Positions 10,782 through 55,016 of a DNA stretch of 64,000 bases are shown piece after piece. A model generated the notes under the pieces. The model saw nothing but the letters and a program-made list of their open reading frames with translations. It made no database searches and had not been told where the DNA came from. Source of the stretch: Halorutilales archaeon Cl-col2-1. GTDB taxonomy: Archaea; Halobacteriota; Halobacteria; Halobacteriales; Afararchaeaceae. Each line of letters starts with the position of its first letter. Position 1 is the stretch's first letter. Position numbers and translations under genes: made by a program. Location of the stretch: the NCBI GenBank assembly GCA_041891055.1, contig CP169074.1:352001-416000 (forward strand), written 5' to 3'.

Positions 10782-10916
10782 TTGAGCGAGGACTCACAGA
10801 CCCAGAAAATCTACTGCGAAGACTGCAGCCTACATATCGACGCCGAGATCTGGGAGACCCACCTCAGAAACAGACACCCCAGAGAATACGATCCCGCCAC
10901 GTTCGGAAATCTCTAA
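10782..10916 (+). CDS. C2H2 zinc-finger microprotein (44 aa)
   Basis: GGAGGTGA Shine-Dalgarno, TTG start, MSEDSQTQKIYCEDCSLHIDAEIWETHLRNRHPREYDPATFGNL (C-X2-C-X11-H-X4-H). Confidence 0.65.
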   Translation: MSEDSQTQKIYCEDCSLHIDAEIWETHLRNRHPREYDPATFGNL

Positions 10917-10950
10917 TTTCCGAGCCATCAAAATCATAGATTTTGAGACG
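10900..10950. repeat. Triloop-hairpin repeat, two units
   Basis: TCGGAAATC-TCT-AATTTCCGA and TCAAAATC-ATA-GATTTTGA with CGTT, GCC and GACG linkers. Confidence 0.7.
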
Positions 10951-11165
10951 TTCGACCTCAACGACTACCTAGACGTCGACGATAGTAGCGGAGGCGGCAA
11001 AGAAAGTGTCGACAAGTCACGCGTCCTCGAACCTTTGAGACGGCGGTCGAGTACTACCACGACCAACTCGACACATAACTCCCCCGGGGGTGAGATGTCC
11101 CTACCGTAATTGATCTCGGTACGACGCATATCTGAGCTAACCAACATTTCTTACTCTGATTTCGC

Positions 11166-16705: not shown

Positions 16706-17170
16706 GCACGCTCACGCACGGCTTCACGAAGCACAGCTTCGTTAGCTGAAAATCTTCGATTTTAAGCTGTGCCGAGCGTGCGCTTGATGTTTGAGAAGAC
16801 GGTTTCAGACATGGATCTTTGACCATAGAGAGACCCATCGATTCTGGTGTCGCAAATCTGAGATTTGCGTACATCCAAAAATCAGAGATTTTTGAATACG
16901 TTATGCGCCTGATCGATGGGTCGGAACTCACGGTGTTTGGTGAGTGGTGCTTATCCGTAGACAGTGGAGAGAAACGATGGCGTAATCCGCGAAGCCGCCA
17001 CCCTGCTCTGGGGTGGCGGCTTCGCTCCGACCACCGACATCATGAACTCCGTTCATGAGCCTCAAAGCTCCGCTTTGAGACAGCGTTTTTAGCTAATGTC
17101 ACGACTCTATCAGTGATGTGTTGTGAATCTTTGATTCACATACGTTGGAACGCAAGCGTTCCAAAACGGG
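16706..17170. repeat. Palindrome cluster: branched element, three pairs of triloop hairpins and a 15-bp stem
   Basis: Stems at 16706-16781, 16851-16894, 16989-17025, 17040-17079 and 17122-17164. Confidence 0.75.
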
Positions 17171-20120: not shown

Positions 20121-20192
<72 letters not shown>

Positions 20193-20195
<3 letters not shown>

Positions 20196-20390
20196 AATTT
20201 CTCTGAAATTTGCACGGAACAGAATTGTAGATTCTGTGACGTTCGCTAATCTCTGATTAGCGTGCAAGCAAATCTTCGATTTGCGAACGTATGCAAATCA
20301 AAGATTTGCGAGCCTGCGAGATCAGAGATCTCGGAACGTTCGGAAATCTTCGATTTCCGAGCCAGCGAGAACGGAGTTCTCGGAACGGGA
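20193..20390. repeat. Tandem array of 8 triloop DNA hairpins (about 24-25 nt period)
   Basis: Loop centres at 20203, 20228, 20253, 20276, 20301, 20325, 20350 and 20374; variable stems, C-NNN-G loops, ACG-type and GCC/TGC-type linkers. Confidence 0.9.
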
Positions 20391-20484
20391 GAAAAACTCG
20401 TTCCCTCCTTGTGGGATTTTTCTATTTCTTCAGAGTCTTCCACTTTCGACGTATTTATCCAGGAACTGTGGTTACTTCCAATAG

Positions 20485-22425
20485 ATGTCTGACTCTGACG
20501 AGCATGGAGGATTCGAAAGTATACGTGAGGAGGTCAAGGGCAATCCTATCGTGAGATTGCTTGGCTACACCCGTCCCTACAAACTACGTCTGATCACTGG
20601 GGTATTGATGTCGTTCTGTACCCGTCTCGCACGCCTCGCACCCCCCGTAATCATAGCCACAGCGATAGATAGGATCATCTTCCAGCGTGGCGAACCGGGT
20701 TTACTTGCTCGGATAGGTTTAGTTCCCTCTGACACCGTCACTAATCTAAATGCCCGGGCTGAGCTGCTGGAAACCTTGGTAATCATAGCTGTTGTTGCCT
20801 ATCTCGTCCGGTCAGTGACACGGTTTCTTTCGCGGTATCTCATCCAGTCAGCCGCACAGAAGATACAACGCGACCTACGGAACGACACGTATGACCATCT
20901 CCAGCATCTTTCGATGAGCTTCTTCACTAACCATCAGACAGGCGGTATGATGTCGATTCTTAACAGTGACATCAACCGACTCGAACAGTTCCTCAACACC
21001 GAGTTCCGCCAGTTCCTCCGTGTGATAGCTATGGTCGGCGGGATTAGCCTAATCCTGTGGTACTATTCGCCTACTCTAGCCCTAATTGCTCTCGCACCTG
21101 TTCCTGTAGTAGGAGTTGCGAGCGGTGGATTCCTCCGTTGGATCGAGCCTCGGTACCAGTCCATCCGAGAGACTGTCGCACGTTTGAACACCCGTTTGGA
21201 GAATAACCTGGGCGGCGTTGCAGTCGTGAAAGCCTTCAACCGTTATGATTTCGAACGTGCCCGTGTAGAGAACCAGAGCCAGAGATACCACGACGAGAAG
21301 GTCGGTGCACTACGTATACGACGTGCTTTCTTCGCCGGTCTACGTTTATTAACGGGAGTGGTATTTGTCGTGGTGCTATACGTAGCTGGCAAGGACTTTA
21401 TAGCTACGCCTACGGGCAAAGAGCCGATAATCTCTGCAGGTGCCTTTGCGGCTTTCTTCATGCTGTTGAGACGTCTCTACTCGCCAATGCGACGAGTGGG
21501 GAAATCAGCTAATAAATATCAGCTTGCGAAATCGAGTGCAGAGCGAGTGTTCGGACTACTTGCAACTCAACCCAGTATGACTAGCCCGTCCGATCCGTAT
21601 CAACCACAGGAGATCGATGGCGACGTCGTGTTTGATTCTGTGTCTTTCGGGTATAACGACAGCAAAAACGAGAAAGTCATCGAGGATCTATCCTTAGAAG
21701 TGCCTGCAGGCACCACCATCGGTCTCGTAGGGGAAAGCGGAGCCGGAAAATCGACCCTGCTTAAACTCATACCGAGGCTCTATGACGTGGATTCCGGATC
21801 GGTCAAAGTTGATGGAACTGATGTACGTGAGTACGGTGTAGAGGCACTACGTGATAAGATAGCTGTAGTCGAACAGAATCCATATCTGTTCTCCGGAACG
21901 GTGGCAGAAAACATAGCCTATGGCAACAGAGAAATCCTCCGAGCCGAGAGTAGCCAGACTGCCACGGACAAAGAGGACGAAGATGAGGTTCGAAAACGGA
22001 TAACCGACGCAGCCCAGGCTGCTGAAGCCCACGGTTTCATACGCGATCTTCCGGACGGATATGACACACAGATAGGCGAACGAGGGGTTAAGCTCTCGGG
22101 AGGACAGCGTCAGCGGGTCGCAATCGCTAGAGCACTACTCAACGACCCCGATATAATAATATTCGACGAGGCGACGAGTGATGTCGATACTGAGACGGAG
22201 GATCTCATACAGCAGAGCCTCGAACGTCTCATTCACGACAGAACTGCTTTCATCATTGCTCACCGTCTTGCTACAACCAAGAATGCCGACCGGATAATTG
22301 TATTAGAGGACGGCGAAATAGTTGAATCGGGCACGCATAAAGAACTCGTACAGACCGAAGGAGTCTACGCATCGTTGTGGAACGCCCAAGCGAATATGAA
22401 TGAACCCATCGGATCGATAGGATAG
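20485..22425 (+). CDS. ABC exporter, fused permease/ATPase (MsbA-like)
   Basis: TM domain plus GESGAGKST, LSGGQRQR, DEATS, IAHRL. Confidence 0.93.
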   Translation: MSDSDEHGGFESIREEVKGNPIVRLLGYTRPYKLRLITGVLMSFCTRLARLAPPVIIATAIDRIIFQRGEPGLLARIGLVPSDTVTNLNARAELLETLVIIAVVAYLVRSVTRFLSRYLIQSAAQKIQRDLRNDTYDHLQHLSMSFFTNHQTGGMMSILNSDINRLEQFLNTEFRQFLRVIAMVGGISLILWYYSPTLALIALAPVPVVGVASGGFLRWIEPRYQSIRETVARLNTRLENNLGGVAVVKAFNRYDFERARVENQSQRYHDEKVGALRIRRAFFAGLRLLTGVVFVVVLYVAGKDFIATPTGKEPIISAGAFAAFFMLLRRLYSPMRRVGKSANKYQLAKSSAERVFGLLATQPSMTSPSDPYQPQEIDGDVVFDSVSFGYNDSKNEKVIEDLSLEVPAGTTIGLVGESGAGKSTLLKLIPRLYDVDSGSVKVDGTDVREYGVEALRDKIAVVEQNPYLFSGTVAENIAYGNREILRAESSQTATDKEDEDEVRKRITDAAQAAEAHGFIRDLPDGYDTQIGERGVKLSGGQRQRVAIARALLNDPDIIIFDEATSDVDTETEDLIQQSLERLIHDRTAFIIAHRLATTKNADRIIVLEDGEIVESGTHKELVQTEGVYASLWNAQANMNEPIGSIG

Positions 22426-22578
22426 CAGGATGTGAGAGGGAGCCGGAGTTTTGATGTGCGAGCTTACACACACGGGTCGAGTCACTGTTACTTGTCAGGA
22501 CATTTGTTTACTCTTCCACCATCTTCAGAAAACAGATGGGGAAGACTTACCCGTCTGCAGTTATTATGTTAATCTGTA

Positions 22579-22779
22579 ATGACGAACGGTAAGGTTGATT
22601 TCTTCAACGACACAGGCGGTTACGGTTTCATAGAGACTGACGCTACTGACGAAGGCGAGGACGTTTTCTTCCACATGGAGGACGTCGGCGGTGACGATCT
22701 CACAGAAGGCACAGAGATAGAGTTCGATATCGAAGAGGCTCCGAAAGGACCTCGTGCGACGAACGTCGTCCGCGTATAA
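22579..22779 (+). CDS. csp: Cold-shock protein
   Basis: GKVDFFNDTGGYGFI, DVFFH, KGPRA. Confidence 0.95.
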   Translation: MTNGKVDFFNDTGGYGFIETDATDEGEDVFFHMEDVGGDDLTEGTEIEFDIEEAPKGPRATNVVRV

Positions 22780-22896
22780 GCGAGAGATCGTTACACGCCG
22801 GTACGATAGATACTACTTTCCTTTATTTGGCTAAATAACTTAGAGAGAGTCTTAATTATCTTTCCGGAGGATCGGAGTCCTGTGTATCAGTTCTGA

Positions 22897-23187
22897 TTAC
22901 TCGATTTCCAACTCGCCGCTGCTGCCGTCTCCTCCCCCACTGGCGTTCTCTTCCCATTCGAGTTCGAACTCGATACTTAACTCACCGGGTTGATCCGTAG
23001 CACCCTCGCGTTCGGCTTTGACCTCGAACGTCGGGCGGGCTGGAGGCTCCATAGTCACAGACTCGGAGCCGGATTTTAGCGTGATCGCGCTCCCTTGTTC
23101 GAGCTTATCAGCCACACTGCGAAGGTAGGCTGCGATATCCTTTCGACTCTGGTCGCCCTCTGATTTGAACAGAACTTCTTCAGGCAT
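22897..23187 (-). CDS. Amphi-Trp domain protein
   Basis: MPEEVLFKSE...IAAYLRSVADKL...FEVKAERE...SIEFELEW. Confidence 0.85.
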   Translation of the reverse strand: MPEEVLFKSEGDQSRKDIAAYLRSVADKLEQGSAITLKSGSESVTMEPPARPTFEVKAEREGATDQPGELSIEFELEWEENASGGGDGSSGELEIE

Positions 23188-23245
23188 GTAGAAGCCTACG
23201 TTACCCACACCGATAAGTTCATCCCACCTATCTACAACTCCTCCA

Positions 23246-23413
23246 TCAACTATTGGCTTCGATAGCCCGTCCTTGTTTCTTAGCCTTCTCCTTAGCCCGT
23301 TCTCTTTCCTCGTCGTCGCCTGGGGGATAGATATACATCTTCCCCGAGTCACCCCATCGATAGTATCCTTTCTTTTCGCCATCCCGTGTTGTATAGCCTT
23401 GTTGCAACGGCAT
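23246..23413 (-). CDS. Small basic hypothetical protein (55 aa), possibly virus-derived
   Basis: MPLQQGYTTRDGEKKGYYRWGDSGKMYIYPPGDDEERERAKEKAKKQGRAIEANS; start is 1 nt after the upstream stop. Confidence 0.65.
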   Translation of the reverse strand: MPLQQGYTTRDGEKKGYYRWGDSGKMYIYPPGDDEERERAKEKAKKQGRAIEANS

Positions 23414-54918: not shown

Positions 54919-55016
54919 GTCTCAAATCCCTCCCTGACGTTCGCAAATCGAAGATTTGCGTGCACACGAGAATGAACTCTCGTGACCATCTCGAAAGTAT
55001 TCTGATTTTCGCTCAT
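54915..55016 (-). CDS. Putative 33-aa uORF coupled to mvaD
   Basis: ATG about 25-30 nt after CTATATTTG; MSENQNTFEMVTRVHSRVHANLRFANVREGFET; its TGA overlaps the mvaD ATG. Confidence 0.4.
   Translation of the reverse strand: MSENQNTFEMVTRVHSRVHANLRFANVREGFET
54937..55011. repeat. Triloop-hairpin repeat cluster
   Basis: CGCAAATC-GAA-GATTTGCG and CACGAGA..TCTCGTG; reverse complement of 54937-54963 matches 20264-20290 at 26/27 positions. Confidence 0.8.

Follow-up and report, generated by a model that had tools for sequence, protein, structure and literature searches.

The 64-kb window analysed here is a stretch of contig CP169074.1 (positions 352,001 to 416,000) of Halorutilales archaeon Cl-col2-1, and our subject is a 198-nt run of small hairpins lying directly behind a tRNA-Glu gene in it, together with the dispersed family of two-hairpin repeats, called dimers below, to which these hairpins belong. 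Throughout, G000 is the genome under study (2.06 Mb) and G001 that of its sister species; coordinates with the prefix C1 belong to contig C1 of G000, those without a prefix to the window, and a caret marks the edge of an element. The locus is laid out as follows:

20121..20195, + strand: tRNA-Glu(UUC) gene (ARAGORN; Rfam tRNA, 53.7 bits)
20193-20213, 20219-20237, 20244-20262, 20268-20284, 20293-20309, 20317-20333, 20340-20360 and 20366-20382: eight hairpin units, H1 to H8 in this order, from the sequence
20191..20241, + strand: dimer D1, 51 nt, atypical and tRNA-linked, GA-[H1 20193-20213]-ACGGA-[H2 20219-20237, T.G closing]-GACG
20242..20289, + strand: dimer D2, 48 nt, TGC type, from the sequence, TT-[H3 20244-20262]-TGCAA-[H4 20268-20284]-GAACG
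20290..20338, + strand: dimer D3, 49 nt, GCC type, from the sequence, TAT-[H5 20293-20309]-GAGCCTG-[H6 20317-20333]-GAACG
20339..20387, + strand: dimer D4, 49 nt, canonical GCC type and an exact match to the family pattern, T-[H7 20340-20360]-GCCAG-[H8 20366-20382]-GAACG
20382..20404, + strand: imperfect hairpin GGAACG-(11 nt)-CGTTCC, from fold and sequence, with GAACG in common with the D4 end

A first-pass annotation of this DNA had placed eight triloop hairpins in tandem behind tRNA-Glu, and all eight were recovered at the same positions and with the same 23-25 nt between loop centres (successively 25, 25, 23, 25, 24, 25 and 24 nt). All except unit 2 (7/8) have a perfect stem of 7-9 bp and a loop of 3 nt; unit 2, with T.G in the closing position, is predicted to fold as DNA into a 7-bp stem with a 5-nt loop, and the foot of hairpin 1 is GCA, the final 3 nt of the tRNA gene. 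Folded as RNA, positions 20190-20410 have a minimum free energy of -100 kcal/mol, compared with -60.1 +/- 4.7 kcal/mol for 200 dinucleotide shuffles (z -8.5, 0/200 as good), and the minus strand folds almost equally well (z -8.1). Perfect triloop hairpins of at least 7 bp number 18 in the window, 7 of them in the array, while in 50 mononucleotide shuffles of the window they averaged 3.9 and numbered at most 7, and no 200 nt of shuffled sequence had more than two. The alternation of the linkers between an ACG type and a GCC/TGC type, and the dimer of about 49 nt that had been read from it, were likewise correct. Two finer points held in part. The known stability of C-GNA-G triloops had been pointed out, and 4/8 loops are GNA when either strand is read (GTA, GAA, GAA and GGA), the other four being AGA or AAA. 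The ends of a dimer had been expected to pair into a Y-shaped junction, and single-stranded DNA folds with flanks do predict three-way junctions for two of the four dimers, D2 and D3, only with the help of neighbouring bases, because the junction GAACGTTC is itself palindromic; the other two lack it, D4 forming none. The imperfect hairpin at 20382..20404 is probably part of the original flank beside which the dimers inserted, and a T-rich run follows the array at ~20417-20431.

The 198-nt stretch is four independent, stacked copies of a non-coding, two-hairpin miniature mobile element. The H1-H2 pair of D1 recurs after a tRNA-Glu-like 3' fragment at C1:1277700-1278060 and at the orthologous locus in G001. 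D2 has a copy with 46 identical nt in another setting, at C1:914987-915038, and a dimer of its TGC type accounts for a presence/absence difference between the two species at the orthologous site C1:1843458-1843505, where a TnpB right end has an extra 48-nt dimer in G000. D3 is matched by R1, a covariance model of the family (C1:372287-372335, E 1.4e-11), and D4 scores 73.4 bits under the same model (E 1.5e-21). The suggestion of the first-pass annotation that the array is an archaeal counterpart of REPs (repetitive extragenic palindromes) and bacterial interspersed mosaic elements (BIMEs), selected on structure and with the palindrome as its variable part, is borne out insofar as a dispersed, mobile, non-coding family with covarying stems exists, but the array consists of four two-hairpin insertions rather than one eight-unit structure. 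We do not see the array serving the tRNA-Glu gene, and it may best be regarded as selfish DNA that the tRNA flank tolerates. A BLAST search of 72,556 plasmid records with the array returned nothing at E<=1e-3, and the contigs of four metagenome runs at this locus were fragments ending at the tRNA or within the array, none of them bridging it and none with a dimer-sized joint.

Within its own genome the array gave 77 BLAST matches. When triloop hairpins closed by C-G were counted, with 6 or more pairs and no more than one internal mismatch, G000 had 286 of them in 104 clusters of 2 to 9, the loop centres being 23-25 nt apart in 129/182 neighbour pairs. The canonical unit can be written ACG^T-[H1, often TCGNNAATC-NNN-GATTNNCGA]-GCC(N)-[H2]-G(A/G)ACG^T and is seen in both orientations; a second dimer type reads TT-[H]-TGC-[H]-ACG. 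The ends of a dimer are short inverted repeats, CGT/ACG and often CGTTC/GAACG, which are its sole inverted ends, and a transposase gene would not fit into an element of this size. Hairpin 1 and hairpin 2 fold separately and do not pair with each other. Loops of the purine type (RRA or GTA, 115) and their pyrimidine-type complements (117) together make up 232/286. In 30 GCC-type dimers the loops of hairpin 1 are mostly TYY and those of hairpin 2 mostly RRA; the isolated pairs show only a mild preference of this kind, with opposite loop classes in 29 and the same class in 14. The arms are far more diverse, with 82 distinct 7-nt sequences, and a single arm may be combined with up to 10 different loops. 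Two other candidates were considered for such a family. Operator sites for a single palindrome-binding protein are rejected in view of the 82 different 7-nt arms, and an array of the CRISPR kind is rejected since the palindrome is the variable part and there is no constant repeat (no search for cas genes was made).

The eight stems of the array do not by themselves show the compensatory change claimed for them in the first-pass annotation, but the family as a whole does. The unbiased test, without selection on pairing, took the 614 ATCNNNGAT cores of the genome: the next four positions were all paired in 182 (about 2 expected) and three of the four in a further 53, and all four Watson-Crick pair types were found at stem positions 6-8. 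When 30 dimers of the GCC type, taken from G000, G001 and G011 (a genome of another family of the order), were aligned, there were 94% pairing cells compared with 74.4 +/- 1.2% after shuffling, a figure that is partly circular in that its rows were chosen with at least 6 perfect pairs. In the same alignment both partners vary in 13/17 pairs (101 cells), and covariation scores 0.516 compared with 0.153 +/- 0.015 for shuffles, 0/500 of which reach the observed score; when the partner is shifted by 1-3 columns, pairing falls to 15-45%. Since G-U cells are nearly absent (~6/504), the two strands fold equally well, loop orientations are balanced and copies occur in coding sequence, the data point to stem pairing at the DNA level rather than to an RNA gene. 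Loops were also found reverse-complemented between copies whose 17-nt flanks are identical to left and right, in 2/35 comparisons of G000 with G001 and in 2/71 comparisons of G000 paralogues, and one orthologous hairpin has GTA in one sister species and TAC in the other.

Paralogous copies with and without the hairpins show how large the unit of gain and loss is. Among 55 filled/empty pairs of high-scoring segments at hairpin clusters throughout the genome, the size difference was 43-51 nt in 47 and 101-103 nt in 4; the other four differed by 36, 57, 57 and 73 nt, the 36-nt case being a deletion between ACGA repeats. Orthologous sites tell of similar differences between the sister species. Four hairpins in a block of 97 nt are present in G000 at C1:1509356-1509452 while the G001 site is empty, and one shared site holds 15 hairpins in G001 vs 4 in G000. 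Behind tRNA-Glu, the order in G001 is an additional dimer of the GCC type (48 nt), the pair H1-H2 and, after these, other hairpins. Identical dimers are found in unrelated contexts. The mobile unit is the two-hairpin dimer, neither the single hairpin nor the array.

Nine canonical events of the GCC or TGC type could be followed at their junctions. CG stands directly 5' of the element in 9/9 filled copies and in 7/9 empty copies, and the 3' end of the element is ACG in 5, ACA in 2 and ATG in 2. Each copy directly follows a CG on its 3' side and has CG as its own last two bases, so that ACG^T is recreated and tandem arrays can grow; for D1 the CG target comes from the 3' end of tRNA-Glu(UUC), GACGGAGCA. 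The usual targets adjoin hairpins or lie inside them, as in a palindrome of 12 bp (in its loop), a hairpin of a guide RNA (in its arm), the end hairpins of insertion sequences (IS) and the linker of another dimer.

Many of these targets belong to TnpB elements. The TnpB zinc-ribbon family has 34 matches in G000, 29 of them in frames of at least 372 codons, and hairpin pairs lie directly 3' of many tnpB genes. Twelve aligned TnpB right ends finish in ...AGTAGGGTGGGGTAGTT(G/C/T)AC, with GTAGGGTGGGGTAGTT in the same ending motif, the other tnpB elements ending differently; 5 of the 12 read through ...CTCAACGAG^CGAACCC..., 5 have one 49-nt dimer there and 2 have two. The dimers of these 7/12 right ends share a single fixed position, ~40 nt short of where the element ends, in the omega-RNA region, and the tnpB frames are still open (examples at C1:1018838-1018938, 1161005-1161057 and 840209-840261). 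The end hairpin of the IS beside the tnpA gene (CCCCGCCC...GGGCGGGG) holds 2, 4 or 6 triloop hairpins, depending on the copy. The genome of G011 offers parallel cases, with two dimers in an IS end-hairpin loop just upstream of tnpA (G011:C10:41803-45150) and a 51-nt dimer inside a tnpB frame (G011:C17:65133-68498).

In 3/43 tRNA genes (Glu-UUC, Pro-CGG and Ile-GAU) the left arm of a family hairpin starts in the final 2-3 nt of the tRNA. At tRNA-Pro(CGG) and tRNA-Ile(GAU) (C1:182169-182258 and 1656373-1656463, respectively) the 3' heptamer of the tRNA returns after the dimer. Behind tRNA-Ile there is, in addition, a TnpB-less IS remnant full of dimers with a second tRNA 3' fragment. The region at C1:1277700-1278060, ~900 kb from the array, has a tRNA-Glu-like 3' fragment with compensated T-arm changes, followed by H1-H2-H3 and a chimera of H4 and H7, D3 being missing; in appearance it is an old duplicate of the att type or else a segmental copy.

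Dimers are also found inside protein genes, 19/104 clusters lying at least 90 nt within stop-free frames of at least 200 codons. The clearest example, in a class I/II aminotransferase gene, is a 48-nt dimer at C1:1774563-1774610 that adds an in-frame insert of 16 residues, VRKSLISEPGDQGSAD, absent in the 93%-identical G001 orthologue and in four other orthologues. Its DNA junctions read ...CTCTCG^T...GAACG^TCGGTG in G000 vs ...CTCTCA^TCGGTG in G001. Dimers, or in one case a triple, lie within four further open frames (C1:645162-645208, 1621357-1621400, 1726797-1726871 and 1919104-1919148), and the four genes encode a family B DNA polymerase (in its intein region), an M24 metallopeptidase, a Hel308-type helicase and a ThiN thiamine-phosphate synthase.

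The covariance-model scan that had been called for in the first-pass annotation revealed further copies, throughout the genome of G000 and in 92/150 genomes of the order at E<=1e-3, 52 of them at E<=1e-6 (the R1 counts for G000 and G001, at least 38 each, are lower bounds). Outside the order, in a sample of the phylum, matches at E<=1e-6 were confined to one family (4/5 genomes) and amounted to 0/127 in the others, which doubles as a negative control. The stricter family pattern CGTTCGNNAATCNNNGATTNNCGAGCC, with at most one mismatch, occurs 37 times in G000, 29 times in G001 and less often in 7 genomes of two further families, a total of 9/251 genomes of the order, and the reversed control pattern occurs 0 times in every genome. 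When one genome each of 185,579 species was searched for the exact pattern, 18 stretches were obtained, all from metagenome-assembled genomes (MAGs) of Halobacteriales, Halorutilus salinus or one "Euryarchaeota archaeon" MAG; viral contigs contained 0 stretches with it. In G101 eight R1 matches all score 37.4 bits, and the same genome has 8 tnpA matches, with in-frame stops in all 7 among the matches listed; the identical scores suggest what may be a recent burst of one dimer type.

As to how the dimers move, we consider it about evenly balanced whether they travel as single-stranded DNA with the help of an HUH/Y1 transposase acting in trans. The element would travel as a single strand with both hairpins folded, and cleavage and rejoining by the transposase would take place at CG^T and at ACG^. 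Each subunit of a transposase dimer would hold one hairpin, and this may be why exactly two hairpins travel together. Intrastrand template switching or conversion between copies would keep the arms perfect and flip the loops. A single-stranded route is favoured by the reasoning that a duplex of 43-51 bp is too stiff to join its own ends, which a single strand with two hairpins is not, and the HUH enzyme is suggested, among other reasons, by a junction logic that resembles that of IS200/IS605. The only candidate enzyme seen would be the TnpA of the one intact Y1 transposase gene (PF01797) in G000, an IS200-type tnpA at C1:979012-979419 with the HUH motif DDHVH and a C-terminal YIEE. It is divergent from a tnpB in an IS605-type unit, and dimers are present on one side of it only and inside the IS end hairpin. 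The 29 long tnpB frames depend on a Y1 enzyme such as TnpA as well. In high-quality genomes with at least 10 R1 matches, tnpA is present in 5/5, compared with a base rate of 58/99. A miniature derivative of IS200/IS605 would have left-end and right-end hairpins on one strand, an insertion site 3' of a short target, a cleavage motif of its own in the right end and no duplication. The dimers agree with this in having two hairpins and CG^...ACG^ junctions, but there is no room in them for a left guide sequence, and they are nearly symmetric.

Several observations weigh against this proposal. The link to an HUH (Y1) nuclease anticipated in the first-pass annotation found no direct support, since G000 has a single IS200-type tnpA and no RAYT-like gene (REP-associated tyrosine transposase), and the presence of tnpA does not track the dimers: it is found in 26/52 dimer-positive genomes (best R1 match at E<=1e-6) and in 45/98 others, that is, there is no association. 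Six genomes that are 97-99% complete (G017, G024, G039, G062, G076 and G138) hold dimers and give no tnpA match, and the same is true of G050, G035 and G056, whose completeness is only 63-88%. The dimer is nearly two-fold symmetric, whereas IS200/IS605 transposition is strand-specific. The IS200/IS605 end hairpins of G000 are GC-rich and end in T(G/C/T)AC, unlike the AT-topped triloops and ACG ends of the dimers, which are inserted into IS ends and not derived from them. The CG found on both sides fits a 2-bp duplication of CG and an insertion 3' of CG by an element carrying its own CG equally well at the sequence level, and other dimer subfamilies have different junctions (AAG, ACA and GATG). 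Hairpin neighbours combine almost freely, with 118 distinct combinations among 174 pairs, which simple copy-and-paste does not predict. The 38 pattern copies on C1 fall into 12 orientation runs vs ~20 expected, a blocky arrangement of non-independent copies from which we draw no conclusion. Finally, the terminal 7-12 nt of the three tRNAs named above are repeated on the far side of the dimer, in better agreement with microhomology or recombination. Presumably only insertions that rebuild the tRNA end survive, hence the longer shared sequences there, and the tRNA ends appear to be the part of the data that best suits recombination or a template switch.

One rival explanation, which on balance we think unlikely, does without a transposase: the dimers would be copied between hairpin sites by template switching during replication or by copying at microhomologies, recombination would reshape the arrays, and the same process would perfect the arms and flip the loops. 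The junctions do share short sequences (CG, ACA and GATG, TGGCCCA over 7 nt at tRNA-Ile and GACGGAGCAAAT over 12 nt at tRNA-Glu in G001), the H4/H7 chimera deletes D3 in the copy at C1:1277700-1278060, and the 36-nt deletion between ACGA repeats is an event of the kind expected. The loops that are reverse-complemented between identical 17-nt flanks, the perfect palindromic stems with nearly no G-T, the free combination of hairpin types and the lack of a tnpA association across the 150 genomes all agree with it too. However, unguided copying would not be expected to give so sharply defined an inserted unit, with 43-51 nt in 47/55 comparisons and CG^T...ACG^ ends in 9/9 events, and the identical dimers in unrelated contexts are likewise at odds with it.

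Rather improbable is the view that the dimers are double-stranded miniature inverted-repeat transposable elements for which a DDE-type transposase would be responsible, duplicating CG as its target, with CGT...ACG as minimal terminal inverted repeats. The CG on both flanks of canonical copies and the short inverted ends, often extended to CGTTC/GAACG, would fit such elements, but on physical reasoning 43-51 bp is shorter than any duplex able to synapse its own ends, neither beside nor around the arrays did a transposon with such ends come to light (not all transposase families of the genome having been surveyed), and single-stranded DNA is indicated by the preference for hairpin targets as well as by the perfect palindromes within the element. 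That the array is instead a functional structured RNA, be it a 3' trailer of tRNA-Glu, the processed multi-hairpin RNA envisaged in the first-pass annotation or an RNA-level terminator or stabiliser, is very hard to maintain: its place on the same strand and directly 3' of the tRNA gene, the T-rich run behind it, the very stable fold and the transcription that dimers in TnpB right ends would undergo within the omega-RNA region speak for it, but only the tRNA passes Rfam at this locus (7 other matches are all under their gathering scores, the best non-tRNA one with 23 bits vs 48), both strands fold equally well, loop orientations are equal (117 vs 115 among 286), G-U pairs are nearly absent, the content of the array differs between sister species and the same unit type occurs in every context, in both orientations and in coding sequence.

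The dimers invite comparison with several known repeat systems. The REP/BIME sequences and the REPIN-RAYT systems (REP doublets forming hairpins, with their transposase) of Bacteria are GTAG-tagged and have a dedicated RAYT (PMC3116915, PMC3337134, PMC3733652), and for Archaea only the IS200 subclass (1.1) is given as occurring (PMC6006769). In common with REPs and REPINs, the dimers are short, high-copy, non-coding palindromes, clustered in mosaics and mostly outside genes, and the movement of both is thought to use single-stranded DNA hairpins and an HUH Y1 enzyme. As in a REPIN, the replicating unit is a pair of hairpins, to judge here by gains and losses of 43-51-nt two-hairpin units. Unlike REPs, the dimers have the foot CGT(T/C) and no GTAG, and their hairpins are shorter, perfect and of the triloop kind, the two folding separately instead of pairing together. 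Unlike REPIN-RAYT systems, there is no RAYT flanked by repeats, the only Y1 gene being the IS200-type tnpA beside a tnpB.

The dimers also resemble the CGTC-tagged REP superfamily of Di Nocera, De Gregorio and Rocco (2013, PMC3733652), which as described is restricted to Bacteria. The CGT(C/T) that precedes the stem 5' on each strand of our dimers, CGTT at hairpin 1 and CGTC at hairpin 2 when the complement is read, may correspond to the terminal CGTC tag of that superfamily. The stems, of 7-9 bp, are of similar length, and GCC(A) behind hairpin 1 is reminiscent of the CCA tail of the CGTC-REPs. Further shared features are a predominance of dimers, insertion inside palindromes and in frame in genes (including those for replication and repair) and the lack of a known dedicated transposase. 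On the other hand, the loop is 3 nt here vs 4-5 nt in CGTC-REPs; their stems are 8-9 bp with two A-T pairs first, whereas those of the dimers are 7-9 bp with either T-A followed by C-G or just C-G at the start; and they are predominantly head-to-head, whereas in our unit the tags point outward (CGT-H1-GCC-H2-ACG), which is tail-to-tail in their terms. In-frame palindromic repeats in genes that are probably still functional are also known as Rickettsia palindromic elements (cited in PMC3733652). Those, as described, are bacterial, whereas the case here is an insert of 16 residues (48 nt) in an aminotransferase. The Rickettsia palindromic elements are longer than the dimer inserts described here.

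The nearest archaeal relatives are, by description, the palindrome-associated transposable elements (PATEs) and the small mobile repeats SMR-A of Haloquadratum (PMC3119063); the dimers were set apart from both by descriptions, not by sequences. The PATEs of Haloquadratum walsbyi include terminal-only forms of 52 bp, for which mobility is suspected (Dyall-Smith et al. 2011, PMC3119063). They share with the dimers a haloarchaeal host, a construction from palindromes, the absence of a transposase gene and of a long target duplication, a suspected mobile unit of ~50 bp and a link to IS200/IS605-TnpB elements. However, the palindromes of PATEs are said to resemble IS605-type ends, whereas the dimers differ from the IS ends of their own genome and interrupt them, and the 52-bp form has one 22-bp palindrome where a dimer has two different hairpins. 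SMR-A has no target duplication, and the dimers have none beyond a possible 2-bp one at CG; neither has a known transposase. SMR-A strongly prefers to insert into palindromes near the ends of PATEs and of IS605-type elements (PMC3119063), just as many dimers lie in IS end hairpins and TnpB right ends. It differs in being ~110 bp long with prominent inverted terminal repeats, as against 43-51 bp and mere CGT/ACG ends. A literature search restricted to open-access papers and preprints found no description of ~49-nt two-hairpin elements in haloarchaea, which is weak evidence.

Taken together, and somewhat short of an even judgement in its favour, we tentatively propose that haloarchaea carry an undescribed class of minimal single-strand transposons of ~49 nt, with two perfect triloop hairpins and CG-bounded ends. 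Such a class would be a RAYT-less counterpart of REPINs, moved either by an IS200-type TnpA acting on foreign hairpins or by enzyme-free template switching; it would parasitise TnpB guide-RNA scaffolds, IS ends and tRNA 3' ends and add 16-residue segments to essential proteins, and its arms would be kept perfect by templated correction and not by selection on a product. If an HUH transposase does move the dimers, two hairpins and a CG would be about the smallest substrate that such an enzyme can carry, and Archaea would have a REP-like system, which published surveys place only in Bacteria. The dimers at a fixed point of 7/12 TnpB guide-RNA regions are a natural experiment on how much structure these regions tolerate, which bears on nuclease engineering. 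The in-frame copies in conserved enzymes, namely the aminotransferase, M24 peptidase, ThiN, Hel308-type helicase and DNA polymerase B (in its intein), may be a source of protein length variation, and the dimers mark sites where two sister genomes differ. Haloarchaeal arrays of hairpins that are conserved in structure and variable in sequence are to be read as stacks of elements, and not as new RNA genes or CRISPR-like arrays.

Beside the array, ~3 kb of DNA (20400-23410) is present in G000 and absent at the orthologous G001 locus, where homology resumes at TTAAGAGACTTCCAGG. Two genes lie within it:

20485-22425: ABC transporter gene
22897-23382: Amphi-Trp-domain gene

The array was considered as the border of an integrated element and rejected as such, the far end of these 3 kb being without hairpins or repeats, although tRNA 3' fragments do occur elsewhere. 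Further members of the family are present in the same window at 10899-10951, 16726-17167 and 54937-54965, and the group at 16.7-17.2 kb has paralogues with and without individual dimers at C1:304650-305372.

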